From: Candidatus Latescibacterota bacterium
GTDB lineage: Bacteria > Latescibacterota > UBA2968 > UBA8231
Direction: 5' to 3'
DNA: 64,000 nt
Assembly: GCA_965204725.1 (NCBI GenBank)
Contig: OZ242005.1
Span: 576,001-640,000, forward strand
In this document: positions 20,784-50,263 of the stretch, piece after piece
Layout of the letters: each line of letters begins with the position of its first letter
Numbering within the stretch: position 1 is the stretch's first letter
Program-made: the position numbers and the translations under genes
Notes under the pieces: generated by a model
The model's input: only the letters and a program-made list of their open reading frames with translations
Told to the model about the DNA's origin: nothing
Database searches by the model: none

Positions 20784-20789
20784 AGCTTT

Positions 20790-33035: not shown

Positions 33036-34190
33036 TCAATCCATGCGGTTGGCATTGATATAGTCCCAGTTATAAGCCATGCCCAGCCCCGGTTCTTGCG
33101 ATACGTGGACGAACCCTTCGTCGTCCATGGGATCGGCGATCTGATCGAGGTGAGGCGGGCTGGCATCGTACTCGCGCCCGGGGCGCAACAGCCCGCGCTC
33201 GTAGTAGCGGCAGGTGGCCTCCGGGGCGGCCGCGGCCAAGTGTACATGCGGCGCACCCACCCCGTGCAGCTCGCATTGCACGCCGTAGAGCTGGCACAAA
33301 TTGATCAGCTTCCAGCAGCCGGTGATGCCGCCGTAATTCACGTCGATGCGCAACATGTCGCAGGCCCCTTGCAACAGCCACTCGGCCCGCGCAAAGGGAC
33401 CGCCCTTGACGTGTTCGGGGGAACAGATAGCAATGGCGGTTTGCTGGGTCAAGCGGCGATAGGACTCCACCCGCGTCTCGACCATCGGATGCTCCAACCA
33501 GTAGTAATTGAGCACTTCCAATTCCCGCGCGACCCTCAGCGACTCTTCGAGGGTATAGACGCCGAATGGATCGAGCATCAGCACCACATCGTCGCCCACG
33601 GCCTCGCGCACCGCCCGACAGATCGCCATGTCCTCTTGGGGAAATCCCGGCAGTTGCGGCGCGGGTTCCCGCGTGTGCGGATTCCAGCAGATATTGGCAT
33701 GAACTTTGAAGGCTTTGTACCCGCGCTCAACACATGTGCGCGCCAACGCGGCGTACTCTTCGGGGCCGCCCAAGTTCGGGTAGGTGCTGGCGTATGCTTC
33801 GACCCTATCGCGGGTGCCGCCCAAGAGTTGGTACACCGGCATGCCTGCTTTTTGCCCGGCCAAGTCCCACAGCGCGCAATCGACAATCCCGAGCTCGTGT
33901 TCGGCGAGGCTGTGGCCAAACGTGGACATCTGGTCCATCCAGTGCCATAGCTTCTCGCGGTTTAGGGGATCCTCGCCGACGAGGAGGTTTTTGACGGGGC
34001 CTTCCATAGTCGCCTTGCTGCCGCCCAAGCTGTGCCCGACGACGCCCTCGTCAGTGGAAATTTGGGTGATCGCCCCGGTGCTTTCCACCTCTTCGTCGTC
34101 AATCCACACGCCGTAGCCCCAGCGCGACCCTGCACTGCGGCCGCGATGCTTGGTGCGAAAACGAATGACTTCAACATTGGTAATTTTCAT
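33036..34190 (-). CDS. Mandelate racemase/muconate lactonizing enzyme family protein
   Basis: VDCALWDLAG, YAS, KAFKVH, MLD, WLEHP, GGIT, PGLG. Confidence 0.88.
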   Translation of the reverse strand: MKITNVEVIRFRTKHRGRSAGSRWGYGVWIDDEEVESTGAITQISTDEGVVGHSLGGSKATMEGPVKNLLVGEDPLNREKLWHWMDQMSTFGHSLAEHELGIVDCALWDLAGQKAGMPVYQLLGGTRDRVEAYASTYPNLGGPEEYAALARTCVERGYKAFKVHANICWNPHTREPAPQLPGFPQEDMAICRAVREAVGDDVVLMLDPFGVYTLEESLRVARELEVLNYYWLEHPMVETRVESYRRLTQQTAIAICSPEHVKGGPFARAEWLLQGACDMLRIDVNYGGITGCWKLINLCQLYGVQCELHGVGAPHVHLAAAAPEATCRYYERGLLRPGREYDASPPHLDQIADPMDDEGFVHVSQEPGLGMAYNWDYINANRMD

Positions 34191-34667: not shown

Positions 34668-36362
34668 TCATTGGGAAAACAACGTCTCGAGGCGGTCCTC
34701 ATATACCACAACCCGCGCTTCGTAGTCCCGCCGCAGCCCGCGCAGGAACTCGTCGGCCAAGCGGCTTTCCTCGGCGCGTTTCAACAGCGCCCGCGCCCGC
34801 TTCGCCGCTGTGTCGAAAGGCTCGGGCGCACTGCCGAAGTTCGACTCCAGCACCTTGAATACCGAATAGTACTCGCCGCCCCGCGGCATGGCCTCCGGGC
34901 CGACCACTTGGGCGGCCTGCGCCGTCACCGCTAGCGGGCCGTACAACCGGCCGACCTCGGCGTTGCGCACCGCGTCGATCAATTCTCGGTAGAAGGATTG
35001 TTCAAAGGCGTGGATGTGGAATTTGCCCTGCGCCCCTTTGCCGACGGCGCGCAAGGTGTGCTCGTCGGCGAGCGGGCCTATCGGCTCCCCTGCCTCGATC
35101 CGCTCCTTGAGCGCGGCGGCCTCGGCCCGGGTTCGCACCATGATCTCCTGCAGCGCGACCTCCTCCGGGGCGGTAAACAACTCGGGCCGCTCGTCGTATA
35201 GGTTTCTGACGGCCTCCGGCTCGATATGGACTTGGTCCTTGACCGCCGTCTGCCTAAGAGCCAAGAGTAACAGTGCGTCTTTGCGGCGCTGGTGCCAGCG
35301 CGCGATCGGCTCTTCGCGGTCCAAGCCCCTTTCTGTGGCCACGTGCAAAAACAAGGTGCGGGGCAGCAGCACGTCTTCGGCGAACCAGCGCACCGACTCG
35401 GCAATGTCGCCGGAAAAACCCATCTTCAACTCGTCAGCGTACTCCCAAAAATCGCCTACGGTGACCCGACCGCCGCGAAATTGAAAGAGCTCCTCGGCGC
35501 GTTCGGCCGCGGTGTACTCTCTCCGCCCGGCCGCGATCTGTTGCTGGAGCTGATGCAAGGTCGCGGCGTTGGCCTGCAAGTCGAGGTCGGTCCGCAGTTG
35601 CGCTAGGAATGCCTCTATCAGCGCGGTCGTCTTTTCCTCTCTCAGCTTGGCCTCCAGCGCATTGCTCGCCGTGGCAAAACTCACGGGCCGGGCGTGCATG
35701 ACTTGATAGATCCCAAACTGACCATTGGGCAAGTCAATCGGCTCTGAGTACTCGCCGACCGCGAGCGCGTTGATATACTGTTGCAGGTAAATCGGGATGC
35801 GGTTGGCAGTCAGATAGCCGTCGAGCTCCCCGCCGTGCGGCGCGGTCGATTGGTGCAGCGACCGGCTGAGCGCCAGTTCGGCGAAATCCCTCCCGTCAGC
35901 CAGACTTTGCCGAATTTGCTCGGCTTCTTGCTGCGTAGCCACGATGATCAGGCGCAGCTTAATCTCGCGCTCCTCGTCCGCGGCCTCGTAGGCCGCGCGC
36001 AGCTCCTGTTCACTGACGCGGACCTTGGCGAGGAATTCGCGCTCGAACAACAGCCGCAACACCCGCTCGGCCTTTTCCCGCCGCAGCTTCTGCGCCACCT
36101 CCGGCGCTTTGTCAAGCCCCCGGTTGAGCGCTTCTTGGAGGAAAATCTCCTTGTCGATAATCGTCTGTAAATAGTCGCGGTAGCCGTCCAAACCGGACTT
36201 CTTGGTCTTTAGCTGCTCTGGCAAGCGCTGTTCAAAGTCGATCAGTTGAGAGGCCGTTATCCGGCGGTCGCCCACTTGGGCCAAAACCGGATCTTCGAGT
36301 TCCTCAGCATCCTTTGCACAACCAGCGAGGACCAAGCCGACGCCCAAAAGTATCAGATTCAT
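34668..36362 (-). CDS. SurA/PrsA-like parvulin PPIase lipoprotein (two PpiC domains)
   Basis: Lipobox LAGC, VLAQVG..IT, GRDFAELA..S....GGEL, second EIMV...EA...GE domain. Confidence 0.82.
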   Translation of the reverse strand: MNLILLGVGLVLAGCAKDAEELEDPVLAQVGDRRITASQLIDFEQRLPEQLKTKKSGLDGYRDYLQTIIDKEIFLQEALNRGLDKAPEVAQKLRREKAERVLRLLFEREFLAKVRVSEQELRAAYEAADEEREIKLRLIIVATQQEAEQIRQSLADGRDFAELALSRSLHQSTAPHGGELDGYLTANRIPIYLQQYINALAVGEYSEPIDLPNGQFGIYQVMHARPVSFATASNALEAKLREEKTTALIEAFLAQLRTDLDLQANAATLHQLQQQIAAGRREYTAAERAEELFQFRGGRVTVGDFWEYADELKMGFSGDIAESVRWFAEDVLLPRTLFLHVATERGLDREEPIARWHQRRKDALLLLALRQTAVKDQVHIEPEAVRNLYDERPELFTAPEEVALQEIMVRTRAEAAALKERIEAGEPIGPLADEHTLRAVGKGAQGKFHIHAFEQSFYRELIDAVRNAEVGRLYGPLAVTAQAAQVVGPEAMPRGGEYYSVFKVLESNFGSAPEPFDTAAKRARALLKRAEESRLADEFLRGLRRDYEARVVVYEDRLETLFSQ

Positions 36363-36390
36363 TTTATTGTACCTTATCTACGGCTTGGCC

Positions 36391-39222
36391 CTAGCGGACG
36401 CTGCCATATACCGTCACGAAGGAAAGCGCGCCCGTCTCCCGCGCACTCGGTTGTTCAAAGCGCTCTAGACGACGTCGGCTCAGCCTAAGCCCCATCAGGG
36501 TTTGCAGGGTATAGCCCAGATACGGCTTGTCGATGGAAAACTGCACGGCGAGCGAGGTCTCGGCGAAATCCCCGGTCACATCGCCAGCGCGCAAACCACC
36601 GGCGGCCGTCTCAGCTTGGACAAAATCGCGGAAAATTAGGTGCTCGACTCCTACCTGCAACAACACGCTGTTCAAAAAGGGGCGTCGCACCAACAGCGAA
36701 AAAATCCCGCTCCAGTCTTGGCGCTCGGCAGCCGCGGCGTTGGTTAGGCGGCCAATGTTATAGGGCGTGTCGTCCATGAAAAGTTCGTGCTTGAAGCGCG
36801 GTTGCACCGCCAGCCGGCCCAGCGAAAACTGGTAGTCAAAGCGGTTGATCAGCCCCAGCCGCCGCGTGGTGCGGGCGATTTTGCGACCGGTGCGATCGCG
36901 GGCCTCGGCGTCGCGCTGCCGAATGAATTCGTGGATGAGCTTGCCCTCGCTATGGATGCCCCGGTAGGGCTTGCTGGTAAAACCAGCCCACAGCCGGTTG
37001 ACGACCGCGTCGCGCATGGCCAGCGGGTCTGCGATGGGCTGCATCGCCCCAGACGAGTTTAGCGGCCGGCCCAGCTCGGGCCGCGCCGTCACCCATTGAA
37101 CCACGTCGTCGGCAATATCGTCCTGCACCACCTTGAACACGTTGTAGAAAGCCGCATTGCCCAGCCGGGGGAAATCGCGCTCGTAGGCCAGCAGGGCGTA
37201 GCGGGTCAGGTTGTTTTCGCCCGTCGATAGGCGCTGAACGTGCTCTTGCCCGGCCATCCACTTCAAGGCCGGCGTCAGCCACGCCCCCAAGTAGGCGTTG
37301 TACCCGCGCCGGTCGCGCTTATAGGGGTAATCCGGCTCGTCGTCGTTTTCAAAGCGCTCGCCCCAACCATTGTTGTTCAAATCGAGGGCAAAGACGAATT
37401 CTGGGCGATCGACGTAGTGGCGCAAAAACTGCTCCTCGTAATCGGGCATGAAGTTCGGGCGCACGGACGTGTTGTTCTGGTTGAAATCGGAAATGAAGTC
37501 GTTGTTCTCGTCGAGCCCGGGGAACACCGCCTCGTCGGCCCAGCCCTCCTTGTCGCGCCGTTGGTCGAGGCGGATGTCGTTGTCGTCGTTGTCGTCGACC
37601 AAGTCGTAGATAAATTCCGACCGCGCCTCTTCGTCGTCGCCGTAGTTGATCCGCCCGCCCTGATCGACGAGGAACGATGTGGTATTGTACTCGGCGTCCA
37701 TGCCAAACGCCTCGCCGAAGAAGAAGAAGGGATGCAATTCTTTGGCGACGTTGATCATCCAGCCCGTCGCTGACTCGTCCCCCAACACGCCGGACGCGCT
37801 GCGGTGGGTCGAGCGCGTGATATTGGGGTACTGCCGGAACTGGTGGTTGACATTGTACTCGGCGTACAGCCGAAAACCCGCCCAATCGCTGACCTCAAAG
37901 CTGAAGCCAAAAACCTGAGTCGCGGTCGGCAAACCGTAGTCGAAAACAACCCACTGCTGATTGGAGTTGTCGCGGACATTGTCGGCCGCCCGCACTACGG
38001 TTAAGAACTTGGATTGGGCACCCAACGGCTCGTTGTCGGTCTGGACATCCGAGGTGACGGCGACCCGGTAATCGTTGTTGAGCAGGAAGCGGAACCGCAC
38101 CGCAGTGATGTTGTTGACCAAGTCGGCGTCGTCGATGAGGTCTTCCAACGCCGCCACGGCCGGGGCCTCCGCGGAAAAATTGTACCGATAGGTGAGCGCG
38201 CCCTCGCTGCCCGCTCCTTCGGCCACGGGAAAGCCATTGCGCGTGGTGCCCCCTTCCACCTGCGGCTGAAAGCCGATTTGGCTGCCGACCAGCACGGTGT
38301 CGCGGCCGCCGATTTGGGTATGGACTTCGATGTCGCGGTCAAAAACCATCGGGCCGCCCACGCCGTCCTCGGGCGAGTCGTCGGTTATGCGGACGATGAT
38401 CCAGTTGATGCGGTTCTCCAGTTGACCATTGGTCAGCTTGCCCTTGAAGGGGTTGCCGCCGCGGTCAGCTTGCGCCCGGCCGTTGTGGGCGTTGACAAAG
38501 GTCGCGCCCAAGCGCACGGCGTTGAGGGCCTTCCATTCGCTCCTGAAGCCGAGCAAATTGGTAAAGTTTTCCGTGACGACCGGGACGCGCACCCCCGGCG
38601 CGATCTGATCCACCGGCAGGCTAATCCGCGCCATCAGCACAGTCGCGGCCAAGCGATCGGCCGCATAGTCGAATTGCACCCCGTTGAAGCGGGTTTTGCG
38701 GAACGTCATCGGCGTCAACGTGGTGTTGATCAAGTCGCCGATGGTCACCCCCAAATAGTGCTGGCCCTTGGCGTCGGTGGCGATGAGCAGGTTGCTAAAC
38801 CACGAGTTGTAGCGGCCGTCCGGCTTGAGCAGGCCCGAGCCCCCCGAGCTGGTCGGCTGCCGCTGCCGCCAGTCGTACACCAGCCAACCCTTGGTTAAAT
38901 AGCGGCCGTACAGGTCGTAGAAATAATCGCCTTCCTGCGCGGGCGAAAAATAGCGCCGGTAGGGCGTCTGGGCGTAGTTGGTGTACTCCCACTGCCAGCG
39001 GTATTCCGGGGCCATTTCCTGCGGCATGTACCAGCGCTTCAACGCGGGGACCAACGCCGCCTGCTGCGTGAGCGGCCCGGTGGCGTAGTAGGAAACCCGG
39101 TCCGCCTCGTTGATCCCCAAGCGGTTGCCGTAGTCGGGCTGGGCACTCGCCGGCGTCAGCCCGGCCAACAAGCAAACCACCGCCCACCTAATGCGCGGCC
39201 CCTTGGTCGAATCGCGTCGCAT
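36391..39222 (-). CDS. Secreted ~940-aa protein, probable outer-membrane beta-barrel with Ca-binding motifs (paralog B)
   Basis: Signal peptide; DDNDDND, DENNDFISDFNQN, DLNNNGW; amphipathic strands at the C-terminus; paralogous to 39222-42020. Confidence 0.65.
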   Translation of the reverse strand: MRRDSTKGPRIRWAVVCLLAGLTPASAQPDYGNRLGINEADRVSYYATGPLTQQAALVPALKRWYMPQEMAPEYRWQWEYTNYAQTPYRRYFSPAQEGDYFYDLYGRYLTKGWLVYDWRQRQPTSSGGSGLLKPDGRYNSWFSNLLIATDAKGQHYLGVTIGDLINTTLTPMTFRKTRFNGVQFDYAADRLAATVLMARISLPVDQIAPGVRVPVVTENFTNLLGFRSEWKALNAVRLGATFVNAHNGRAQADRGGNPFKGKLTNGQLENRINWIIVRITDDSPEDGVGGPMVFDRDIEVHTQIGGRDTVLVGSQIGFQPQVEGGTTRNGFPVAEGAGSEGALTYRYNFSAEAPAVAALEDLIDDADLVNNITAVRFRFLLNNDYRVAVTSDVQTDNEPLGAQSKFLTVVRAADNVRDNSNQQWVVFDYGLPTATQVFGFSFEVSDWAGFRLYAEYNVNHQFRQYPNITRSTHRSASGVLGDESATGWMINVAKELHPFFFFGEAFGMDAEYNTTSFLVDQGGRINYGDDEEARSEFIYDLVDDNDDNDIRLDQRRDKEGWADEAVFPGLDENNDFISDFNQNNTSVRPNFMPDYEEQFLRHYVDRPEFVFALDLNNNGWGERFENDDEPDYPYKRDRRGYNAYLGAWLTPALKWMAGQEHVQRLSTGENNLTRYALLAYERDFPRLGNAAFYNVFKVVQDDIADDVVQWVTARPELGRPLNSSGAMQPIADPLAMRDAVVNRLWAGFTSKPYRGIHSEGKLIHEFIRQRDAEARDRTGRKIARTTRRLGLINRFDYQFSLGRLAVQPRFKHELFMDDTPYNIGRLTNAAAAERQDWSGIFSLLVRRPFLNSVLLQVGVEHLIFRDFVQAETAAGGLRAGDVTGDFAETSLAVQFSIDKPYLGYTLQTLMGLRLSRRRLERFEQPSARETGALSFVTVYGSVR

Positions 39223-42020
39223 TACTCTACCCCAGCGTACACCGAGATAAAACTAGTCCCAAAGGAGCGGCTCTCGCTCTGCTTGACGAGGCCCTCGGCA
39301 CTCAACACCACGGCCTCGTCCCACCGCTTGGTATAACTAAGGCCGAACTGGGTGGTCAGCTTGTAGCCGAGATAGTGCCCGAGCGTCGTCCACTGCAAGG
39401 CCAAGACCAAGTTGCGAAAATCGCCCGTGTCTGCGGTGGGGCCGTCGGCCAGCAATGCGTCTTCGTCTAGGACCAACTCGCGGAACATCGAATACTCCAC
39501 GCCGCTTTCGAGGAAGGAGTTGTTCAACACCGGCAGCCGCGCCTGCACAATGCCGATGCCCATCCACTCCTTGCGATCGGGCTCGGCCCGCAAAAAGGCC
39601 GTCTGGTTGAGGTATTCGCTTTTGAGCTTGGGTTGCAGCACGAGCTGGCCGATTTCGTAGGTGTAATCCGCCTTATTGATCAGCCCCAGAAACTGGGTGC
39701 GTGGATTGAGAATGGGCGCGTCGCCGCTTTTGAACGCCTGACCGCGCTGGCGGAAGAGGCTGTACTTGAACTTGTTGATCACGTTTAATTTTTTGACCGG
39801 CGCATAATCGAATTGCACGTAGCTGTCATTGACCCAAGTGTCCCGAGCCGGCAGGATGTCCTCGACGAGGGCCAGCGAGACCGTCTGCAAGTCGGGCGTT
39901 GGCTCGCGGCGAATGTCCGGGATGTTGTCGGCGACCTTTTTCAGGGAATTGAAAAACCGCAAGCGACCCCAGCGCGGGTGGTCGCGGTCGTACGCGAAAA
40001 CGCCGTACGTCACGTGGTTGCGGCGGTCGGACGAGATCTCGTTTTCGCGCAGCCGCCCTACGGTCAAGCGCGCGTCCGGCGTCAGGTGCTGGCCGACGTA
40101 CACATTGTACCCCCGGTGATTGCGGCGATAGGGGTAGTCGGGCAAGTCGTCGTTTTCAAACCGGTCGATCCAGTTGTTGTTGTTGAGGTCAATGCCGAAG
40201 AGGAATTCTGGGCGATCGACGTTGTAGCGGAAAAACGGCTCCTCGTAATCCGGGATGCGATTGCTCAGGGAGACGTTGTCGTTCTGGTTGAAATCCGAGA
40301 CGAAGTCGTTGTTTTCGTCCCAACCGGGAAAGACGATCGCATCGGGGCCGCCTTGGCCCCAGCGGTTCCAATCCGGCGTGCGGTCTTGGTCGTCGTTGTC
40401 ATCGACGAACTCATAGACCGAGGTGCGCTCGTCGTCGTAATACACGCTGCCGCCCGAATCGACGATAAACGCCGTCGTCGAGTACGCCGGGTCCATGCTG
40501 AAGGCTTCGCCGAACAAGAAAAACGGATACGCCTGCTTGGAAACATTGACCATCCAAGCGGCCGCGTCGCGGGCGTGGGTATTCAGGTTGCGATCCGAGT
40601 TGACGAGCGTGAGGTTGGGATACTGGGTGTAAGCGCGATTGATGTCGTACTCGGCATAGGCATCAAAGCCCAGCAACTGCAACACCTCCAGCGTGAACCC
40701 AAACACCATGTTGGCCGACGGCAACCCATAGTCGAAGACGACGCGCTGTTGGTTTGAATTGTCCGTCACATTGCCGGCCGCACTGCGGACGTCAAAGAGC
40801 ACGGCCCCGGCTTGCTCCAAATCCAAGCTCGTAAGCGGCGGACTGGGTAGGCTGCCGCGCCCGATCTGGCGGTCGGACCAAACTTGGATCTTGTAGTCGT
40901 TAGCAACGACCAAATCGAACTGGATATCGACGATCTCGGTCGGCCTGGGGCCAATATAGGCCAAGTCGGCGAAATCGTAGTTGATGACGATTTGCTCCTC
41001 GCCATCGGCCGCCAAAAAACCCTCCCGGGGGAAGCCGCCAGTGACGACCGGCCACTTGGTCGGATCGGCGACCACCTCCCGCCAGCGGAATTTCGTGCGC
41101 TTCTTGGTGTTGAAGTCCTCGGCCGTAATGATGATGTCGTGGGCAAACAGCGCCGCCCCGCCCCGACCATCTTCCGGGGAGTCGTCGCTCAGGACCACGG
41201 CGATGGCCCGAATAGGGTCGCTGCCCTGCTCGGCCCCCAAGGTGCCGACGAGCGGGTTGCGTTCAAACGCCTCGGCCAGCGTCTGCGAGTGATGGGCATT
41301 GACCAGCGTCGCGCCGAGCTTGACGAAATCCCCCACCTGCGCGGTGGCCCGGCCCCCCATCATATTGGTCGCGTTGGTCGAGGTGCTGGGCTGGCGCTCG
41401 GGGGTGGTGCCGAGAATGGCCTCGCTGGCGCGGGAGAACAACAGCGTCGCTTCGTATTTGTCTGCGGCAAAGTCCATCTGGATGCCGTTGAAGCGCGGCT
41501 TTGAAAAGGTCAGCGGGGTCAGGGCCGTGCGAATGCGCTCGCCGATGGTTATCGCCAAGTAATACTGATCTCGTGCGTCGGAAGAAACCGTGACGGCGTT
41601 GAACCACGAATTGAACTTGGGGTCTTTGTATATCGACGAACCAAATTGGCCCGGTTGGGTCTGGTTCCAGTCGAAAATCAACCAACCCCAAGTCTGGTAA
41701 TTCCCGTACAGGTCGTAAAACGGCCCGCCTTGGCGGTTGGTGTTGACGTAGCGCTGGTATAGGTCGCGTGCGTAATTCGAGTACTCCCACTGGCGAAAGC
41801 CGTAATCGACGTATAGCTCCTGCGGCACGTACCATTTCTTGAGCGCCGGATCGAGGGCATCGAAGAGGACGCCCGGCCCTCTGGGCTCAAAGGTGAGCTG
41901 GGCGCCGCGCTGGGTCCCGAAACGACGGTCCAGCGACTGGCCGACCGCCCCGGTCGCCGGCCATACCAGCGCCAACGCCCAGAGGACCAACCACGCGGAT
42001 ACCCCCCTAGTTCTGCCCAT
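39222..42020 (-). CDS. Secreted ~930-aa protein, probable outer-membrane beta-barrel with Ca-binding motifs (paralog A)
   Basis: Shares PALKxWYxPQE, FYDLYG, DDSPEDG, DNSNQQxVVFDYGLP and RFENDDxPDYPY with paralog B; TAATG coupling. Confidence 0.65.
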   Translation of the reverse strand: MGRTRGVSAWLVLWALALVWPATGAVGQSLDRRFGTQRGAQLTFEPRGPGVLFDALDPALKKWYVPQELYVDYGFRQWEYSNYARDLYQRYVNTNRQGGPFYDLYGNYQTWGWLIFDWNQTQPGQFGSSIYKDPKFNSWFNAVTVSSDARDQYYLAITIGERIRTALTPLTFSKPRFNGIQMDFAADKYEATLLFSRASEAILGTTPERQPSTSTNATNMMGGRATAQVGDFVKLGATLVNAHHSQTLAEAFERNPLVGTLGAEQGSDPIRAIAVVLSDDSPEDGRGGAALFAHDIIITAEDFNTKKRTKFRWREVVADPTKWPVVTGGFPREGFLAADGEEQIVINYDFADLAYIGPRPTEIVDIQFDLVVANDYKIQVWSDRQIGRGSLPSPPLTSLDLEQAGAVLFDVRSAAGNVTDNSNQQRVVFDYGLPSANMVFGFTLEVLQLLGFDAYAEYDINRAYTQYPNLTLVNSDRNLNTHARDAAAWMVNVSKQAYPFFLFGEAFSMDPAYSTTAFIVDSGGSVYYDDERTSVYEFVDDNDDQDRTPDWNRWGQGGPDAIVFPGWDENNDFVSDFNQNDNVSLSNRIPDYEEPFFRYNVDRPEFLFGIDLNNNNWIDRFENDDLPDYPYRRNHRGYNVYVGQHLTPDARLTVGRLRENEISSDRRNHVTYGVFAYDRDHPRWGRLRFFNSLKKVADNIPDIRREPTPDLQTVSLALVEDILPARDTWVNDSYVQFDYAPVKKLNVINKFKYSLFRQRGQAFKSGDAPILNPRTQFLGLINKADYTYEIGQLVLQPKLKSEYLNQTAFLRAEPDRKEWMGIGIVQARLPVLNNSFLESGVEYSMFRELVLDEDALLADGPTADTGDFRNLVLALQWTTLGHYLGYKLTTQFGLSYTKRWDEAVVLSAEGLVKQSESRSFGTSFISVYAGVE

Positions 42021-42050
42021 CAAATTCCTCCATCAAAGGTCGATACGGAC

Positions 42051-42383
42051 TCACGCCTTCCGAGCATTCCTCAATTTGCCGACCCAAGCCAGTACTACGA
42101 TGACCACCGGCCAAAACATGGTATTGATTAGATCGTGAATACTCGCCGTCAGGGCTGTCTGGCGAAAGTAACTCAGATAGGTATAATCGTCGCGTAAGTC
42201 AAAAACCTCCATCAGGGCCGCCGTAATGGCGACCGGGATCAAACAACGCGATTCAATCGCGCCCTTTTTCCACAGGACTACGGCCCCAAAAAACACGAGC
42301 AATCCGAGGTGAACGTGGATCGAGTCGTGTGAAAGCTCCAAGAGGGTGGTGATTACGGACTTAGCGTTTTGATAGGTGGACAT
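42051..42383 (-). CDS. Small hypothetical membrane protein
   Basis: Three TM segments, HDSIHVH, lower GC, GAGG RBS. Confidence 0.65.
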   Translation of the reverse strand: MSTYQNAKSVITTLLELSHDSIHVHLGLLVFFGAVVLWKKGAIESRCLIPVAITAALMEVFDLRDDYTYLSYFRQTALTASIHDLINTMFWPVVIVVLAWVGKLRNARKA

Positions 42384-42410
42384 TGCCTCGTTTTTATTCC
42401 ATGTGTGCCG

Positions 42411-44618
42411 TTAATAAACCATTTCGACGACGCCCAGTGCCGCTTCCTTTTTGGCATCGGTCGCCAAATGGACGCGGAAGAGGTAGATGCCCGGGGGCGC
42501 CCGTCGGCCCGCCGAGTCCGTGCCGTCCCACGCTACGGCAAAACTCCCGCCTCCTTGCTCGCCGGCAAAGAGCGTACGGACGCGCCGCCCAGCCAGATCG
42601 AACACGCGCACAGTAAGCGGCGCGGCATCAACCAACCGCACCAGATCGCAGTGGATCCGGGTTTCGTCGTTGACCCCATCGCCGTTGGGGCTGAACAGAC
42701 GCGGTTGGGCCGCGACGTTGATCATCAGTCGGCGGCCCGCCAGCGGCACCTTTACCGCTAGGTCGTTTGGGTCGGCCGCCCCTAGGGGGATCAAATCGTC
42801 GTCCGCGGGTCCCAAGTCGGCTGCGTTGCCGCCGATGACCCGCTGGCCGAGGGCGTCGGCGGTGCTGTTCCAAGCAGTGCCGGCAAAGGTCGTACCAAAC
42901 CGCAGCACTCGGCACTGGAAGCGGATTTTGACCACCGCCGCCCGCCCGGCCGCCAAATCGCTTTCCTCAATCGCGGGAAAGCGCACCCGTAGATACCGCT
43001 CGGTCGCCGCTTCCACGGCAAAGAGGCCGCTGGCGTCTGAGACGGGCAGATCGGTCAAGGCGACGCCGGTGAAGTCGGCCGTTTGCACCGCGCCGTCGGC
43101 GTGTACGACCTCAATGGTCTCGACCGCTTCGGCCCGCACGGGCGTGGCGATCTCAAACACGTCAAACCCCAAATCGACGCCCCGGCGCATTTTGGTCGGC
43201 AGGACGGCATACGTGAACGACACCGGAACGCCCAGCTCGACTTGGCGCGGGACGACCTCGCTGACGATCCGCTCGGTCAGCGGCGGGTTCGACACCGTAA
43301 AGGCGAGGGCACCCAACGCCCGGGCGGATTCTAAATCTTCGCTCGCAAATTCGGCCTTCAACTGGAAGTAGCGGCGGGGGCCGGGCGAGAGGATGGGCAC
43401 ACCGAGCGTATCCTCGGCCGTTCGCTTGTACGGCGGCGACCAGCGGCTCCACGCGACTAGGTCGTCGCGCACATCGCCCTTATCCGCATTTCTCAAATCG
43501 TCGTACTCGTCCTGCGTCAGCGCGACTTGATTGCGCTCGACAATGGGCAGGGCGTTGAACAGGTCGAGGGCCGCTTGGCCGTCCTCCATGGCGTCGAGGT
43601 CAACCGCATCGCCTGCGGCCGTGGTCGCAACCGCTCCTTCCCGCCACGGCACGTCCTCGCCGTAGCCGCGATGTTGGCGGGTAAATTCCACAGGAGTGTC
43701 GTCCCAACCGCTACGCGAACTTATCTGCAAGCGCGACAGACGCTCGACTCCTACGTGCTCCTCTTGCCAGCGGACGCGCCCCCACAGCGCCAATTCCGCG
43801 CCAAAATCGAAGACATTGGAAAGATAATCGGCGCGGGGCACAAAACCGGAGCCAAAGACGCGAAATTCCGCGATCTCAAATCCCACAGTGGTCTGGGATT
43901 TTAAGCGGATGTAGCGGACGTATTGCGGCGGGATGGTCAGTTCGACGACCGGCTCTTCGTTTTCCGGCTCCAGTTCAACGGTGGTCAGCACCGGCTGATT
44001 GGCGACCTGCGTTTCTTCGCTGCCGTCGTTGAGCAGCAACTCAAAGCCCCGCAGAAAATCGTTTTGGAACGGAAAGTCCGGGGTGGGGAAATCGGGGTGC
44101 GCGTTGCGGGGAAAAAACTGGATGCGCTCGACCCCAAACCGCGCCCCGAGATCGAAATCCATGATGACCCCCAAGGAGTTGACTTGGCTCGCCCCTCGGG
44201 CTGTCTTGCGCTCAAAGGCGGTCGCGGGGTCGTCGTCAATCATAAAAATCAACTGGTCTTTTATGACCTGCGACAATATGGTCGGCGCACCGAGACGACC
44301 GCCGCGGTCGAGAAGGCCCAAGGCGATATTCGCGGTCTCATCCGCCCGTTGCGGCGTCATCCAGCCCAGCCGGCCAGCCGCGTCAAATTCGAGTACATTG
44401 CCCGGGGTATTGCTGACCTCGACCTCGGTCGGGCCGGTTTGGATCAAGGCCGCAATGGTCCCGCCGCCGCCAGCCCACTCCAACCCGTCCTCGCCGCCCA
44501 TGACGATGGTACGGCGTTCAGCCCCTAGGTCTTGGACCACCAAAAACATCAGCACGAGGGCCTTCGCGCCCAGATACAACACAGCCGATTCTCTCCTCGA
44601 TCGGTTGGGATAGGTCAA
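42411..44618 (-). CDS. Secreted discoidin-like + FlgD-Ig/CHU_C-tailed protein (paralog 3)
   Basis: DFDLGARFGVERIQFFPR, EIAEFRVFG, FSPNGDGVND, VFDLAGRRVR, WDGTD..G...PPGIY. Confidence 0.75.
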   Translation of the reverse strand: MTYPNRSRRESAVLYLGAKALVLMFLVVQDLGAERRTIVMGGEDGLEWAGGGGTIAALIQTGPTEVEVSNTPGNVLEFDAAGRLGWMTPQRADETANIALGLLDRGGRLGAPTILSQVIKDQLIFMIDDDPATAFERKTARGASQVNSLGVIMDFDLGARFGVERIQFFPRNAHPDFPTPDFPFQNDFLRGFELLLNDGSEETQVANQPVLTTVELEPENEEPVVELTIPPQYVRYIRLKSQTTVGFEIAEFRVFGSGFVPRADYLSNVFDFGAELALWGRVRWQEEHVGVERLSRLQISSRSGWDDTPVEFTRQHRGYGEDVPWREGAVATTAAGDAVDLDAMEDGQAALDLFNALPIVERNQVALTQDEYDDLRNADKGDVRDDLVAWSRWSPPYKRTAEDTLGVPILSPGPRRYFQLKAEFASEDLESARALGALAFTVSNPPLTERIVSEVVPRQVELGVPVSFTYAVLPTKMRRGVDLGFDVFEIATPVRAEAVETIEVVHADGAVQTADFTGVALTDLPVSDASGLFAVEAATERYLRVRFPAIEESDLAAGRAAVVKIRFQCRVLRFGTTFAGTAWNSTADALGQRVIGGNAADLGPADDDLIPLGAADPNDLAVKVPLAGRRLMINVAAQPRLFSPNGDGVNDETRIHCDLVRLVDAAPLTVRVFDLAGRRVRTLFAGEQGGGSFAVAWDGTDSAGRRAPPGIYLFRVHLATDAKKEAALGVVEMVY

Positions 44619-47188
44619 TACGCCACGTGCAGCACGCGCTGAACCCCCGTTTGCCGGACGCCGCGGTCCGAATCTGCGTCCACGTCGATCCGCAAGATAT
44701 ACACCCCGGGCGGAACCACCTGCCCCTGCTCGTCTTGGGCCGCCCAGTCAATCCCGTATTGCCCGGCCACTAAGGGCTTGTAGGCATCGAGCCGACGCAC
44801 CAAGCGGCCACCGAGGTCGTAGATTCGCACTTTGACGGGCCGCGCCCCGCTCAGCCGACGCACGGTGAAATCAATGGTTAGCGCGTCGTTGACCCCGTCG
44901 CCGTTGGGCGTCACGACCTCGGGCTGAATGCCCAAGTCGCCGAGGACTTTGTCGTCCTGCACCGACGCTACGATCTGCAACCCCCCGCTCTGGGCCAGTT
45001 CGGTGACGTCCGCGGGGTCAACTTGCTGCCACGAGTTGGCCAACGACGAATTGCCCAGCGCCGCTTGCAGGACGACCCCAGGCGAAAACAGGGCCGTAGT
45101 AAACCGCACCTCAAGCAAGTCGATCTGCCCGCCCCGCTCGACCAGCCGGTCGAGGCGCAACCAGAGCGAGTCCGAGCGCGTTTCCACCACTTCTACGGCG
45201 AGCTCCTCGGGTTGGCCGCTGGCCCACTGCGCCGAGCTACCCAAGCGCAACGCGCCAAACTCGAGCGACATATCCGGCGGCGAGCGCACCAAGATCTCAT
45301 CAAAGCCCAGATCCTGCGGCCCAAAGGTCGGCTCGACAAACAGCGAAACCTCCTGCGGCGCACCCAAGCGCGCAAAGACCCCGAGGTCTAGTTCGCCCTG
45401 AAGCTGCTTGGCGACCGGCGGATTGAAGTTCAAGCGGATGGAGTGCAATCGGGCCGCCTCCATGGGGTCGGCGGTCGCCAACCGGGCGCGCAATAGCAGG
45501 TATTGACGCGGGCTGGGCGAAGTAATGGGGTCGCCGGAACGCACGTAGGGCGCGCTCCAATTGCTCCAGTCGGAACCGGCCACCTGTAGGGTGTCGATTC
45601 GACCCTTCTTAAAAAAGCCCAACTTCTCGTATTTGCCCGCCGAGACTTCCACGCCGCCACTGTCGTAGTACCGATAGGCTTCGGCCACCTCGTTGCCGGT
45701 GCGGGTTTGGATTTGCACCGCCGTGCCCGAGGGCGCGTCCGCCTCCCATTCGATGGACACGAGGCTCTTGGCCCCCTGCAAGGGAATCAGCCCCGACTCC
45801 AGCGCCACCTCGGGATGATACCCTTCACCGTAGATCTGCACTTCGCGGACACGCGCCTTATTCCCCTCTCGGCCCGACTCGCTGCTGGCAAAGGGATAGG
45901 CTAGGCGCACAAAGCGGGCCGGCGTCGGCTCGAAGGTGTTGACCTCAAACGCCGTGCCCAAGCCGCGGACCTGGGCCGGCGCCGCCCACAACCGGCCGCC
46001 ACCGGGGGCGGGCGTACCATCTGAAGTCTGGATTTCGTATTGGTGAAAACTGGCACCCGTCAGCCGGCCGCCGGCGACGCTGAGGTTGTACCATAGCTGC
46101 ACGGTGTCGAGCCAGTAGGAAGCCCCTAGGTCAAACTCCAGAAAGCGCTCGCCAAAGGCCACGTTCCCCGTCTGAAAGGCTTTGAGATTAAAGGTCAGAT
46201 AGGTCCCCTCCCCATCGACGAGGTTGCCCACAGACCCTTCGTGCGAGCTTTCGGCGCTGCCATTGCGGTCGAGGATCAGGCCCTGCGAAATGTTTTTGCC
46301 CAGCTCATAGACAGCCAACTCGGCCAAGCGCGGCCGCTCCCGCCGATAGTAGCGCACCGAGCCGCGCAACTGCGGGTCAATCGCCTCGTAAATCGCTTGC
46401 TCGACCTCCACCTCCCCTTCCCCCACCTGCTTGTAGAAAACCACGTCTCCCCGGTCGCGCCTCGCCAACGCTTCATACTCGTCGGCCGACACCTCGACCG
46501 CACGTCCTCCGTCGCTTTCGGAGACCACGATTTGGACGAAGCGCACCATGTCGCCGGCAAAATCCACCCCGGGCACCGGATTGATGAGCTCCCCGCGGTT
46601 CAGGTCGAACTCAAACGCGCGCTGGTTTTTGTTGTCGCTGGGCGTCCGGTACACCAAGTGCATGGGCACTTTGCCCGCCACCTTGTTGCCTTGGTCCGCA
46701 TTGTCAGCCGTTAGCACCGCGAACTGTAGGAAGGGATCGCCCTGCCCCTCGGGCACAAATTGCAACCCAATGCGCGTGGCGTTGATCAACCGCCCCATAT
46801 CGACTTGGAACCACCAATCCCGCAGCGGGCTGTCCGGGTCGGGTTCCCAATAGGTCGTTGCGTCGCCGTCGAAGAGGTTGGCGACCGCCGCCTGATTGGT
46901 CCCGGCCTCAATCGCGTCGAGGATGGTCGCGTTGTCGGGATCGGAAGCGGTGCGCCGCAGGTGTTGGACAATGTCCGTCACGGCGTTGTGGTCCTTGGGC
47001 ACGAAGGCCGGAGCGACCGCCCCGCTGGCCGAGAGGTCCAGCGTCCCCTCGACAAAGGCCCAATGGCTCCAGTGGCGTTGGGTATTTACGGCGACGTGGT
47101 CGGAGCGCAAGGCGTGATTCTGCGCCCCAACCAACCCCCACAACCCGAGCCCCATCCCCAGCGCCAGTGCGAATTTTTCGCGGACCAT
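44615..47188 (-). CDS. Secreted double-discoidin + FlgD-Ig/CHU_C-tailed protein (paralog 2)
   Basis: AGGAGA RBS and ATG at 47188; LFDGDATTYWEP, VTPNGDGVND, IYDLGGRLVR, VPPGVY. Confidence 0.75.
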   Translation of the reverse strand: MVREKFALALGMGLGLWGLVGAQNHALRSDHVAVNTQRHWSHWAFVEGTLDLSASGAVAPAFVPKDHNAVTDIVQHLRRTASDPDNATILDAIEAGTNQAAVANLFDGDATTYWEPDPDSPLRDWWFQVDMGRLINATRIGLQFVPEGQGDPFLQFAVLTADNADQGNKVAGKVPMHLVYRTPSDNKNQRAFEFDLNRGELINPVPGVDFAGDMVRFVQIVVSESDGGRAVEVSADEYEALARRDRGDVVFYKQVGEGEVEVEQAIYEAIDPQLRGSVRYYRRERPRLAELAVYELGKNISQGLILDRNGSAESSHEGSVGNLVDGEGTYLTFNLKAFQTGNVAFGERFLEFDLGASYWLDTVQLWYNLSVAGGRLTGASFHQYEIQTSDGTPAPGGGRLWAAPAQVRGLGTAFEVNTFEPTPARFVRLAYPFASSESGREGNKARVREVQIYGEGYHPEVALESGLIPLQGAKSLVSIEWEADAPSGTAVQIQTRTGNEVAEAYRYYDSGGVEVSAGKYEKLGFFKKGRIDTLQVAGSDWSNWSAPYVRSGDPITSPSPRQYLLLRARLATADPMEAARLHSIRLNFNPPVAKQLQGELDLGVFARLGAPQEVSLFVEPTFGPQDLGFDEILVRSPPDMSLEFGALRLGSSAQWASGQPEELAVEVVETRSDSLWLRLDRLVERGGQIDLLEVRFTTALFSPGVVLQAALGNSSLANSWQQVDPADVTELAQSGGLQIVASVQDDKVLGDLGIQPEVVTPNGDGVNDALTIDFTVRRLSGARPVKVRIYDLGGRLVRRLDAYKPLVAGQYGIDWAAQDEQGQVVPPGVYILRIDVDADSDRGVRQTGVQRVLHVAY

Positions 47189-47213
47189 AGCCAATCTCCT
47201 CAACGAGCCGGTT

Positions 47214-49202
47214 TCAATAGGCGACCGCGGCAACCCCAGTGCGCTGCTGCGGCCCCTCTTCGGTCTGTACCTCAACGCGGCAAATGTACACCCCCGGGGC
47301 CACCGGCTGGCCGCGCTCGTCCAAACCGTCCCATTGCCGCCGGTGGCGACCGGCCGCGTCGCGCCCCTGATACACCGCACGCACCAACCCGCCGGCCAAG
47401 TCCCGCACCTCCACCACGGTCGGGGTCGGCACCACCAGTTTGAGCAGATTATAAGTAATGTCCAATCCGTCGTTGACGCCGTCGCCGTTGGGCGTAAAAA
47501 CGCCCCCGGCCAAGTCGAGCGCCCCAAGGACCCGAGTGCCCAGCGCAACCGCCTGCACCGAAAGGGTGTTGCCGTCGCGCAGGGCTGTGGCATCGCCCGC
47601 CTGCACCGACTGCCCAATCTCCTGCGGGGTTTGGCTGTCGGACACGCGCCCGGCAAAGGTCGCTCCGTAGCGGAAAATCTCGCCGCTGAAATCCACCTCC
47701 ACCACCTCTTCCGTGCGGTCCACGTCCAGCCTCGGTACGCCGACCACCAGCCGCTCGCCGCCTTCTTCGATCCGCTCAAAAGCCACCGCTTGCCCCCCGA
47801 TCCGCACGTCGTCAATGCTCACCAAGCGCCCGCCTTGAGCCGAGATTTCCAAGCGGTCAAACCCCGGATCGTCGAGTCCAATGGTGGGCCGGATGGCGTA
47901 GGTAAACTGCGTCACTTGGGCCGTTTCTGCCTGATAGGGATCAATTTCTCCCACCAGCGCCGCGACGGTCGGCCGCGACGCGGTAAACTCCAAGTAATTC
48001 ACCCGGCTGCCCGCGGCGACATTCGATTGGAAGTCCAAATCAAATTGCACAAAACGCCGGGGCTTGGTCGCCGACCAGCGCGTCCCGGTGCTGTCGCTAA
48101 AATCGTAGGTCGTCGACCAGAAATCCCAATGGTCGGCATCGCGGGTGATCCGGCCGCGCTCGGAAATTTCCAAGCGTCCGTAGGTCCGCAGGGTCAGCGG
48201 CCTGCCCCTGCTGTCGTAGTTCACCTGCTCGTCGCCGCGGAACGTATGACGCCAGTATATGTTGGGGTCGGCATCGCTGCCGCTCTGGCTGCGGACGTTG
48301 ACCGTGGCCTCAGCGTCCTCGCGCCCCGACCAGCGCAGTTCGCCGAGCGTGACCTCTTGGCCTAAATCGAGGATGTTGGACCGGTACGAGGCGTTGGGCA
48401 CATAGCCGGGGGCGAAGATCTCGAACTCGGCGATCTCCCAATCGCGCGTCGGCTGCGAAGGCACAAACAGCACCACGCGCCGAATGTACTCACCGGTGAG
48501 TTCCACCTCCACGGTGGAGCGGGTGTTTTCCTCGACCTCCAATAGCGCGTTGAAATACATGTCTTTGCGGTTGTACAGATCGCGGTGCGCCCGGTTGATG
48601 AAGTCCAAGCAGTTATCCGTCCGCCCGGCCGTACACAAATCTACGCTGCTGATCCCGGCTTCCTCAATCGTCAGCGTATTGGTCCAAACGTGAAAGAGTT
48701 CGATGTAGTTGTCTTCGTTGCCGGTGCGCGTAAAAAAGCGGAGGCGATCTACGGCAAATAAACCCCCGAGGTCGAACAACAAGGTTTTGCCGAACCGCAA
48801 GTCATCCCCCACGTTCACCCGATTCGATCCCTTCTCCTCGTAATAGGCCGTCTCGCGATCGCCGTCGTTTATCAAGACGATATCGTCGGTTTCGATCCAA
48901 GCCTGAAAGCCTTGGGTCTGCAAGTAGCCGCCGCGATCTTTGACGGTCGGCGCGATGTTGAAATCAGCGGGAAAGAACAACGGGGCAATGCCGTCGGGAG
49001 CAATCGTCAGGGACTCGCTGACCCCCTGCAAGTCGGCATCGAGCGCGGCCCAGCTAAATTGGACGAAATCAGCTTCCCCGCTGGCCACTTCGGGCGGCAG
49101 CGGCAAGCCCTCGCCACCCAACCGATAGACGGTCAATCCCACCACCGGAGCACTGCTCGCGGCCAACAACAGCGCGACGCAGCATCCTCTAAATGCGACC
49201 AT
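47214..49202 (-). CDS. Secreted discoidin-like + FlgD-Ig/CHU_C-tailed protein (paralog 1)
   Basis: FDLGGLFAVDRLRFF, WEIAEFEIF, VFTPNGDGVND, WDGLDERG..VAPGVY. Confidence 0.75.
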   Translation of the reverse strand: MVAFRGCCVALLLAASSAPVVGLTVYRLGGEGLPLPPEVASGEADFVQFSWAALDADLQGVSESLTIAPDGIAPLFFPADFNIAPTVKDRGGYLQTQGFQAWIETDDIVLINDGDRETAYYEEKGSNRVNVGDDLRFGKTLLFDLGGLFAVDRLRFFTRTGNEDNYIELFHVWTNTLTIEEAGISSVDLCTAGRTDNCLDFINRAHRDLYNRKDMYFNALLEVEENTRSTVEVELTGEYIRRVVLFVPSQPTRDWEIAEFEIFAPGYVPNASYRSNILDLGQEVTLGELRWSGREDAEATVNVRSQSGSDADPNIYWRHTFRGDEQVNYDSRGRPLTLRTYGRLEISERGRITRDADHWDFWSTTYDFSDSTGTRWSATKPRRFVQFDLDFQSNVAAGSRVNYLEFTASRPTVAALVGEIDPYQAETAQVTQFTYAIRPTIGLDDPGFDRLEISAQGGRLVSIDDVRIGGQAVAFERIEEGGERLVVGVPRLDVDRTEEVVEVDFSGEIFRYGATFAGRVSDSQTPQEIGQSVQAGDATALRDGNTLSVQAVALGTRVLGALDLAGGVFTPNGDGVNDGLDITYNLLKLVVPTPTVVEVRDLAGGLVRAVYQGRDAAGRHRRQWDGLDERGQPVAPGVYICRVEVQTEEGPQQRTGVAAVAY

Positions 49203-49234
49203 ACGAACATCTCCCAAGGAGAAGGACTTTATAA

Positions 49235-49269
49235 CTGAAGGGGAGATGCCCTAGACACCTCCCCTTCAG
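49235..49269 (-). terminator. Strong stem-loop after the CBM9-like gene (terminator or mRNA stabiliser)
   Basis: CTGAAGGGGAG...CTCCCCTTCAG; ~16-bp stem with G-U pairs on the minus strand; weak U tail (TTATAA). Confidence 0.7.
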
Positions 49270-49300
49270 AGACTACAGGTACTGACAGACGCGAAGCAAA

Positions 49301-50263
49301 CTATTGGATATAGACCGCCTTGATGCGCCCCCAGCTTTCTTCTTCCACCGAGGTGCCGGTGCCGAGGCTGCTGAAATCCACGCGGGGATCAATCGGCGCG
49401 AGCAGGAAGTCCGAGCAATTGACGCAGTCGAACCACATCTGGATGTTGGGGTTGATGCCCCAGCCGCCATCGCTGGCGCCGCCGTTGTCCTCTTCGGCCG
49501 AATCCATGTCGTGTACGACCCAGCCCAAGCCGATGGTATTGCCCTCGACAAAGGTGTGAATTTGGCTCTCGTCCGGGCCGACCCAGTAGAAATCGTCCCA
49601 AGCAACCGACATCACCTCAATGCGCGCGGTGACCTCGCCGGAGTTGACTTCGCCATCTAGCTGGAACCCGTAATCGCCCCACGGGGGCTTGTCGTGCCAA
49701 GTGGAATTGCTGTTGAAGAACCACTTCCAACCGACGGCTCGGTTGGCATCGGGCAATTCAGGCCAGACATAGTGGGCGTTCTGGGCCAGCCGGCCTTGGT
49801 TGCGCTGGCGCTCTTCGTCGTCGTCGTAGTCGTCGGGGAGCGCGAAGTGCCGGTCGCCGCCGTGGTCGGCGTCGATCATGATTTCCCAGCTATCGTCGCC
49901 CGCGGCCACCGCGCCGACGCCATTGCGATCCCAGTAGTTGTCAAAACGCTCCATCATCAGGTAGAGGCGGTTGGTTCCCGCGCTCCACGCACCCACCACC
50001 CGAAACGACAGATTGCTCTCATCGTTTTCGTGGCCCAAGCCGAGATAGTACTCGAAGTGCGAGTCAAAGGGAACGTAGTAATCCTCTGGGACGATATCCC
50101 ATTCCGAGAGGTCGCCGTCCAAGGTGGGTTCCTGACCTGCGGGCCACTGGAAAAGCGTACCGGAGTCAATGCCGGGGATCGGCACATGGGCCGATGCCGC
50201 GCTGGCCTGTAGCAGGATGCCGAGGGCCAAAACAGTCGCGCTGCTCAGAATTTTCTTCTTCAT
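49301..50263 (-). CDS. Secreted CBM9/DOMON-like protein with C-terminal SWGxIK motif
   Basis: Signal peptide MKKKIL...ASA, PTLDGDLSEWD, DDSWEIMIDADH, ends TSVEEESWGRIKAVYIQ; GAGGTG RBS. Confidence 0.75.
   Translation of the reverse strand: MKKKILSSATVLALGILLQASAASAHVPIPGIDSGTLFQWPAGQEPTLDGDLSEWDIVPEDYYVPFDSHFEYYLGLGHENDESNLSFRVVGAWSAGTNRLYLMMERFDNYWDRNGVGAVAAGDDSWEIMIDADHGGDRHFALPDDYDDDEERQRNQGRLAQNAHYVWPELPDANRAVGWKWFFNSNSTWHDKPPWGDYGFQLDGEVNSGEVTARIEVMSVAWDDFYWVGPDESQIHTFVEGNTIGLGWVVHDMDSAEEDNGGASDGGWGINPNIQMWFDCVNCSDFLLAPIDPRVDFSSLGTGTSVEEESWGRIKAVYIQ

Follow-up and report, generated by a model that had tools for sequence, protein, structure and literature searches.

The locus and the question it raises

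Does a run of seven genes at 34668-50263 of a 64,000-nucleotide stretch of a Candidatus Latescibacterota genome (contig OZ242005.1, positions 576,001 to 640,000; the whole stretch is called the window below) encode a surface-assembly machine of its own, or do its products make use of a secretion system encoded elsewhere in the genome? Latescibacterota are widespread, uncultured and poorly understood; the genome in question comprises 5.43 Mb in 2 contigs and is 94% complete with 10% contamination. [quoted passage not shown] The direct evidence consists of the gene content, the paralogy and repetition of the cassette, the predicted barrel and beta-sandwich folds, and the T9SS genes of the genome. 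The genes are listed from the upstream end (aa, amino acids; nt, nucleotides; ORF, open reading frame).

49301-50263, minus strand: swg, exported protein of 320 aa, start ATG at 50263
47214-49202, minus strand: tailA, beta-sandwich protein of 662 aa with a type-B-like T9SS C-terminal domain (FTPNGDGVND...)
44615-47188, minus strand: tailB, paralog of 857 aa that has both an F5/8 type C (discoidin) domain and a type-B-like C-terminal domain
42411-44582, minus strand: tailC, 723-aa paralog with an ambiguous start (44618, 44582 or 44549)
42051-42383, minus strand: doubtful hydrophobic ORF of 110 aa inside the 390-nt gap between tailC and barB
39222-42020, minus strand: barB, 932 aa, predicted member of a novel outer-membrane barrel family, of the type present in nearly all cassette copies
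36391-39222, minus strand: barA, 943 aa, second barrel paralog
34668-36362, minus strand: ppi, 564 aa, parvulin-type peptidyl-prolyl isomerase (PPIase) lipoprotein with lipobox LAGC

All seven module genes lie on the minus strand, as a first-pass annotation of the window had it, and the partial translational coupling it described is seen at TAATG, where the stop of barB and the start of barA have one base in common. Also borne out are its three tailed paralogs, which all match FlgD_ig (46.9 bits in tailC, 30.5 in tailB and 36.1 in tailA) and score 31.2, 38.3 and 25.6 bits, in the same order, against CHU_C (PF13585; cut-off 27), its pair of paralogous proteins of about 930 aa (39% identity between barA and barB across 963 alignment columns), and its parvulin lipoprotein (Rotamase_2 at 55.8 bits and the LAGC lipobox in ppi). 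Signal peptides were assessed by eye, without a predictor.

The tailB start was placed at ATG 47188, which is preceded by GAGGAG and opens a signal-peptide-like stretch; the listed 1066-aa ORF is over-extended upstream. Intergenic gaps within the operon measure 25-98 nt, except for the 390 nt between tailC and barB, where the G+C content (window 42024-42410) is visibly lower than in the surroundings. In the closest related loci of public genomes the same gap spans 46-75 nt in four and 211-665 nt in three, by hit coordinates, and in the window it may represent an insertion. The 110-aa ORF inside it has no Pfam match and no relative of at least 60 aa among the matches listed in the public-genome search, and is probably outside the module. 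A promoter scan gave 4 sites against 4.0 in shuffled sequence and a terminator scan 17 against 20.6, so neither shows an excess.

Predicted giant barrels of a family without a described relative

Neither barA nor barB matches a Pfam or NCBIfam family at E ≤ 0.01, and the profile of the barrel family finds nothing among PDB sequences at E ≤ 1. All 120 listed barA homologs are without Pfam domains, the sole name carried by any of them is "hypothetical protein", and those listed with an organism name come from metagenome-assembled genomes (MAGs) of Candidatus Latescibacteria or Latescibacterota.

An AlphaFold model of barA built on 31 sequences reached a predicted local distance difference test score (pLDDT) of 67.7 and a predicted template modelling score (pTM) of 0.67, and has about 24-26 long antiparallel strands by our count. 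All 50 neighbours listed by Foldseek are outer-membrane barrels or engineered proteins built on them, and so are all 50 listed by VIA, which is headed by SlpA (7zgx; Z 15.9, 413 residues aligned) and continues with AlgE (Z 15.1), the OprD family (Z about 14), FimD (Z 14.0) and maltoporin (Z 13.5). The Foldseek neighbours include SlpA, MtrB, LptD, FimD, PapC and SprA, with template modelling (TM) scores of only about 0.2. On this model, itself of middling confidence, barA and barB are predicted to be outer-membrane beta-barrels of a family without a described relative, which favours the first-pass view of the two as barrels and not soluble proteins.

Two regions of barA stand out, a beta-rich insert at residues ~250-420 and a near-invariant stretch rich in Asp and Asn at ~540-635. 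Each follows an even-numbered strand and would thus face outward under the usual barrel topology. Residues 22-145 are conserved, yet modelled below pLDDT 50.

Several known barrel types were considered and rejected. Assignment to SusC or another TonB-dependent receptor fails because the proteins have no plug domain and no TonB_dep_Rec match, and the same kind of scan does detect the window's TonB-dependent receptor at 4593-7034. Assignment to PorP/SprF fails on the absence of TIGR03519 and PF11751 matches and on size (943 and 932 aa versus about 300 aa). The sole TIGR04189 match in the genome lies at C1:3.03 Mb, so the barrels are not SprA homologs. Membership in a chaperone-usher system was discarded as well, since none of the seven proteins matches a family of ushers, chaperones or pilins, and FimD and PapC appear only as generic barrel neighbours.

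As the first-pass annotation had observed, there is no PorP, SusC/SusD pair or usher gene within the operon, and no characterised system is matched by sequence (Pfam, NCBIfam, PDB) or in the literature searched; no publication found there describes the cassette. The available part of one account of Latescibacteria mentions porins and TonB import, and not this cassette (PMC4454575).

A further barrel paralog, at C1:413192-415707 of the genome, appears to be spread over two frames (profile positions 49-776 and 778-937) and is probably a frameshifted or broken copy.

Cargo-like tails and the T9SS genes of the genome

The tails are related to each other at 24-30% identity (tailA versus tailB and tailC). 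A tailC model based on 50 paralogs (pLDDT 92.8, pTM 0.85) is a chain of beta-sandwiches ending in the C-terminal domain, and its Foldseek neighbours, at low TM, are galactose oxidase, which we take to start with a CBM32 domain, C5a peptidase, alpha-2-macroglobulins, PrgB Ig-like domains, RbmA and PorU. Against PDB sequences the tail-family profile matched FlgD Ig domains (3osv, 2.6e-9), CBM32 (4a41, 8.7e-5) and discoidin (4zz5, 1.6e-4), as well as CBM6 and neuropilin b1. Within the operon, F5_F8_type_C (PF00754; cut-off 28.2) was matched by tailB, at 35.6 bits, and by neither tailA nor tailC in the Pfam scan.

The same C-terminal architecture recurs throughout the genome. In an alignment of 50 tailA- and tailC-type paralogs (tailB-type left aside; E ≤ 1e-3), FlgD_ig was matched by 49 and CHU_C by 44, TIGR04131 (type B) by 16 versus 6 for TIGR04183 (type A), and PF00754 by 6. 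A six-frame translation of the genome contains the motif P[ND][GN]DGxN[DE] at 76 sites, in every case 80-99 residues upstream of a stop. Sixty-two of these lie inside barrel clusters and the other 14, by coordinates, in orphan tail paralogs, and the placement of the motif thus makes the PNGDGxND-type C-terminal domain exclusive to the tail family in this genome.

Genes for a T9SS are present elsewhere in the genome. SprA is found as one frame of 2198 aa (485.4+116 bits, cut-off 200) and PorU at 623.3 bits (cut-off 420), directly adjoined by a PorV-like gene that stays below its cut-off (150.5 bits, cut-off 250). Of the core genes for which the first-pass annotation had advised a check, SprA was thus found over the cut-off and a PorV-like gene below it. 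GldL, GldM and GldN remained unmatched; since the control genomes were silent too, the Gld scans neither show nor exclude a full T9SS. The last ~80 positions of PorU are matched at no fewer than 50 further places (51 of 165 candidates scored), which indicates many other T9SS-type cargo proteins. PorP/SprF (TIGR03519; cut-off 90.55) is approached at two places only, both outside the window, which score 44.1 and 42.7 bits. No cognate PorP/SprF-family gene is linked to the window's tails, and the barrels that are linked to them match no family.

These findings bear on the first-pass proposal of a self-contained export machine, in which the giant barrels would themselves translocate the three tailed proteins, independently of SprA. 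In size the barrels would suffice, the FimD and PapC ushers, LptD and SprA are among their Foldseek neighbours, the gene directly upstream of a barrel is usually a tail (see below), and GldL, GldM and GldN are without a match. The likeness to ushers and SprA is, however, that of barrels in general (TM about 0.2), the tails bear a domain of the T9SS-signal type, and the cassette encodes neither an energy source nor a periplasmic chaperone-usher partner. The genes for SprA, PorU and a PorV-like protein elsewhere in the genome weaken the proposal, and we consider it quite improbable.

Repetition and spread of the cassette

The window's proteins were compared with the genome by tblastn, keeping non-overlapping hits of at least 150 aa. 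This yielded 50 tailB-type, 37 tailA-type and 28 tailC-type hits, 33 barB-type and 7 barA-type, 30 for ppi and 24 for swg, and the barrel profile gave 41 matches, which correspond to about 38 genes. The hits form 48 module groups, 28 with at least one barrel and 9 with at least two, and 18 of the 28 barrel groups combine a barrel with swg, ppi and no fewer than two tails. In total, 382,878 bp (7.0% of the genome) belong to the six module families; with such a share devoted to it, the cassette probably has a central part in the cell's dealings with its surroundings.

At same-strand junctions shorter than 300 nt, the gene immediately upstream of a barrel is a tail in 23 cases; swg precedes tailA in 7, and a barrel precedes another barrel in 5 and ppi in 5. 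The 23 tail-barrel junctions match the linkage reported between the genes of type-B cargo and of SprF-like shuttles; the cargo requires a specific, genetically linked shuttle of this kind (PMC12618676). The arrangement of one, three, two and one genes singled out in the first-pass annotation exists as one variant but is not fixed, as most copies have one barrel and the gene order varies.

One full copy of the cassette, at C1:3338000-3357000, has a G+C content of 48-55% compared with about 60-65% elsewhere, which suggests recent acquisition.

In line with the expectation that the gene set should co-occur elsewhere, it was found in many other genomes. At least 620 of 644 candidate stretches from public genomes encode a relative, and 76 loci were kept. 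Nine of the 12 closest loci show the order tailA-tailB-tailC-barB-barA-ppi (L018, L019, L021, L023, L024, L026-L029); of the remaining three, L025 begins within barA, and in L020 and L022 only a part of barA is found, behind other DNA. Among the matches listed, distant loci are arranged as tailC-barB-barA-swg-tailA-ppi (L076, L081, L083, L084, L088, L090, L093) or as ppi(reverse)-swg-tailC-barrel-tailA-tailB (L074, L075, L077-L079).

At E ≤ 1e-20 the barrel family is present in 35 of 61 sampled Latescibacterota genomes and in 10 of 13 families, the window's genome itself not being counted, and absent from the sampled members of families f2 (0/16), f3 (0/3) and f7 (0/5). DNA nearly identical to window positions 39222-46000 (at least half of the sampled words) was detected in 14 runs, with labels including sponge and marine metagenome; RNA runs are not among the runs listed.

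The swg tag and the parvulin lipoprotein

swg itself has no Pfam match at E ≤ 0.01 and no NCBIfam match. We call it CBM9-like because 6 of 21 swg paralogs match CBM9_1 (PF06452; best 1.4e-9); PF06452 is carried by 2 of 62 database homologs, and the swg profile matched one xylanase chain (E 0.0053) in the PDB.

More constant than the body of these proteins is their C-terminus. The tag of swg is TSVEEESWGRIKAVYIQ (window 49301-49350), and the consensus, strictly C-terminal, is T-[SA]-V-E-x2-[ST]-W-G-x-[ILV]-K followed by 3-10 residues. The 21 aligned swg-type proteins have a mean identity of only 25%, and all but one end in T-S-V-E-x2-S-W-G-x-I-K plus 3-10 residues. Across the six-frame genome [ST]WGx[ILV]K occurs 55 times, 43 of them within 12 residues of a stop. 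The tag was found on 41 ORFs of at least 100 aa, all with starts that resemble signal peptides by eye, and 21 of these are swg-type by BLAST. The other 20 are diverse by Pfam (sCache_2 in 2, PD40 in 3, and CBM9_1, FGE-sulfatase, SBP_bac_3 and LTXXQ in one each; 11 without a match).

Outside the window's genome the tag is written T-A-V-E-x2-[ST]-W-G-x-I-K. A relaxed DNA pattern detected it in 18 of the 61 sampled genomes, with 0 matches for the reversed control, and in only 4 of 61 when Ser was required at the second position. All 18 tag-positive genomes are among the 35 that are barrel-positive, and none of the 26 barrel-negative genomes has it; as related genomes are not independent, this co-occurrence serves as a lead, not as a test. 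In NCBIfam, the 21 aligned proteins gave two stray matches, of one protein each, and no model was shared by any two of them; no description of the motif was found in the literature searched. The tag could be a new protein-targeting signal and is easily searched for in metagenomes.

The sequence of ppi places it among the parvulin-type PPIases. Besides Rotamase_2 (PF13145, cut-off 27) it matches Rotamase (PF00639) at 37.9 bits against a cut-off of 21.7, with flanks resembling SurA, PpiD and PrsA; partial matches to NCBIfam PPIases all stay below their cut-offs, and no equivalog is reached. The genome holds about 30 paralogs, mostly within cassette copies.

A tentative model of assembly

In the reading we favour, the three tails would be exported by Sec and then carried through the outer membrane by the T9SS by way of their type-B-like C-terminal domains. 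A co-encoded barrel of about 930 aa, instead of a small PorP/SprF, would receive the tails and hold them at the surface; in this copy the partner would be the barB and barA pair, with the large loops (the beta-sandwich insert and the Asp/Asn-rich stretch) directed outward under standard topology. The parvulin lipoprotein may serve as a dedicated periplasmic chaperone or as a subunit, and the CBM9-like swg may join the complex through its conserved C-terminal tag. The complex would capture specific glycans or glycoconjugates and possibly pass them to the barrel and to neighbouring inner-membrane transporters.

This model is favoured because the cassette resembles the arrangement of type-B cargo and SprF in three respects: its kind of C-terminal domain, the linkage of cargo and barrel genes, and a genome that encodes SprA, PorU and a PorV-like protein. 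Bacteroidota type-B cargo is anchored at the surface by binding to its PorP-like protein (PMC9143113). Capture of glycans is proposed because about 28 diverged copies per genome are combined with exposed discoidin/CBM32-like and CBM9-like domains.

A number of observations weigh against it. On the cargo side, the CHU_C scores are close to the cut-off, with tailA below it, and TIGR04131 reaches 18.9 and 17.5 bits in two of the window's tails and is not matched in tailA (cut-off 35). On the barrel side, the barA model is of middling confidence, with residues 22-145 and 547-625 below pLDDT 50; at three times the size of PorP/SprF, the barrels have no sequence in common with that family, and they have neither a plug domain nor a match to TonB-dependent receptors. 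As for the secretion system, GldK is matched only through an FGE-type domain (66 bits, cut-off 350), and GldL, GldM and GldN have no match in this genome or in the control genomes. Finally, the 183 neighbouring ORFs described below include no glycoside hydrolase or polysaccharide lyase and one sulfatase fragment, a poor fit with polysaccharide utilisation.

Genes beside the copies

Of the 197 ORFs outside the module that lie no more than 5 kb from a copy in the genome, 183 were scanned for their families (13 under 150 aa and one in no locus were omitted). The ORFs were chosen by a home-made rule on the G+C content of third codon positions (GC3), with no gene caller, and the low-G+C copy at C1:3.34-3.35 Mb was missed almost wholly. 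The following kinds were counted; proteins with only tetratricopeptide repeats (TPR) were also numerous.

FG-GAP_3 and UnbV_ASPIC: 19
DUF6785 and DUF6784 membrane proteins: 11
PMT_2, mostly with TPR: 8
Permease parts of ATP-binding cassette (ABC) transporters: 8
PhyH: 5
Solute-binding proteins: 3
FGE-sulfatase domain: 3
GDSL-like: 3
Sulfatase fragment: 1
Glycoside hydrolase or polysaccharide lyase families: 0

Three genes next to the window's operon may be accessory to it, and MR_MLE is also found downstream.

50426..52450, minus strand: possible accessory SBP_bac_5 solute-binding lipoprotein (189.6 bits), directly upstream of swg
31300-33039, minus strand: possible accessory PMT_2+TPR membrane protein, downstream, of a kind that recurs beside other copies
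29334-31364, minus strand: possible accessory GDSL-like protein of 676 aa, downstream, of a kind that recurs beside other copies

A copy of the SBP_bac_5 gene with 73% identity flanks another cassette at C1:5.28-5.32 Mb.

The transport genes bring a Sus-like import system into consideration. Sus-like systems and polysaccharide utilisation loci of Bacteroidota combine SusC/SusD with surface glycan-binding proteins. By analogy, the barrel would mainly be a substrate channel, with tails and CBM9-like protein as surface binders feeding it, and every one of the ~28 copies would have a single nutrient of its own; anchoring of the tails could then take place elsewhere, for instance through PorU. The repetition resembles that of polysaccharide utilisation loci, lectin-type domains occur in the tails and in the swg family, and the neighbours include DUF6785/DUF6784 proteins (11 of 183), ABC permease parts (8) and solute-binding proteins (3), with families of sugar and acid catabolism nearby (MR_MLE, GFO_IDH_MocA, DHDPS, AP_endonuc_2). 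Substrate channels such as AlgE, the OprD family and maltoporin are also among the VIA neighbours of barA given above. Against this stand the barrels, which lack a plug, a TonB box and any match to TonB-dependent receptors, the absence of glycoside hydrolases and lyases from all 183 neighbours, and ExbB, which occurs beside two atypical loci only. Import of this kind appears possible, if rather unlikely.

A further reading is an adhesin or surface-layer array that would attach the cell to host matrix or particles, with many copies providing surface variety. The tail is a rigid chain of beta-sandwiches without an enzyme domain, whose structural neighbours include the Fn domains of C5a peptidase, PrgB Ig-like domains and RbmA; the top neighbour of the barrel is the S-layer-bearing SlpA; FG-GAP/UnbV_ASPIC (19/183) and TPR proteins are frequent beside the copies; and the runs with near-identical DNA noted above (14 runs) include ones labelled sponge and marine metagenome. 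The cassette is, however, also carried by MAGs labelled with other habitats, so attachment to a host cannot be its general role. There is no sign of switching between copies, and the transport genes beside them would be left unexplained. We therefore regard an adhesive array as improbable.

A broader proposal is that the cassette is an outer-membrane capture and uptake machine of Latescibacterota's own, a counterpart of SusCD made up of a new giant barrel family, T9SS-delivered lectins and a parvulin lipoprotein. The tag would then act as a docking or sorting signal of a new kind, bringing various periplasmic or surface domains (CBM9-like, Cache, PD40, FGE-type, solute-binding) to the barrels. 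This is speculative, and we give it a minor share of our confidence.

Two atypical loci depart from the usual gene content. At C1:244-258 kb (L168), a CHU_C/FlgD_ig tail and a tagged CBM9-like protein lie beside a PorP-like barrel of 317 aa (44 bits, cut-off 90.55), without a giant barrel, and with genes for ExbB, a TPR/YfiO-like protein of 1081 aa and a PMT_2+TPR protein. Replacement of the giant barrel by a PorP-like one fits the same role for both, in a single case. A second atypical copy, at C1:92-109 kb, has ExbB and a TPR protein of 1090 aa.

Elsewhere in the window, two DUF6785+DUF6784 membrane proteins of unassigned function are encoded at 22672-24657 (minus strand) and 53567-55717 (plus strand); no mention of DUF6785 was found in the literature searched. 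Restriction-modification genes lie at 19779-21788, 26177-29017 and 61220-63433 and encode an N6_N4 methylase and its MTaX1/HNH partner, a fused enzyme of the MmeI-like kind and the R subunit of a type I system. PQQ_2/BamB-like beta-propeller proteins are encoded at 2-883, 3598-4833 and 18320-19618, and the TonB-dependent receptor at 4593-7034 has been mentioned above.

Comparison with known systems

In structure, the best neighbours of the barA model are SlpA of Deinococcus (7zgx, 8ae1), MtrB (6r2q), LptD (4q35) and FimD, with Foldseek E from 4e-8 to 1e-6. At a TM of about 0.2, 6-10% identity and no PDB profile match, this likeness is one of big barrels generally. The SprA translocon with a bound PPIase subunit, by the title of its entry (PDB 8gl8), likewise brings a very large barrel together with a PPIase, whereas the PPIase here is a parvulin-type lipoprotein, one per cassette, and the barrels are not SprA homologs.

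Sus-like systems share with the cassette the many diverged copies of a barrel with surface proteins of carbohydrate-binding type, and the transport genes nearby. They differ in that the cassette has no TonB-dependent receptor, plug or SusD, its surface proteins bear T9SS-type tails and are not lipoproteins, and its 183 neighbour ORFs hold no carbohydrate-active enzyme (CAZyme) families. If the barrels do import what the lectins catch, they would represent a second, SusCD-independent solution to selective nutrient capture at the outer membrane.

Closest to the reading we favour are the SprB-SprF and PG1035-PorP pairs. As in these, the tails carry a C-terminal domain of ~90 aa with PNGDGxND that matches CHU_C at scores near its cut-off, the cargo gene adjoins a gene for an outer-membrane barrel, predicted in our case, and the genome has SprA, PorU and a PorV-like gene. 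Unlike these, the partner is a barrel of about 930 aa with no sequence match to PorP/SprF, three paralogous cargos are accompanied by a tagged CBM9-like protein and a parvulin lipoprotein, the whole is repeated ~28-fold, and it belongs to Latescibacterota, not Bacteroidota, with TIGR04131 below the cut-off. If the barrels are indeed the partners of type-B-like cargo, the cargo-shuttle principle would extend beyond Bacteroidota, to a much larger and different barrel.

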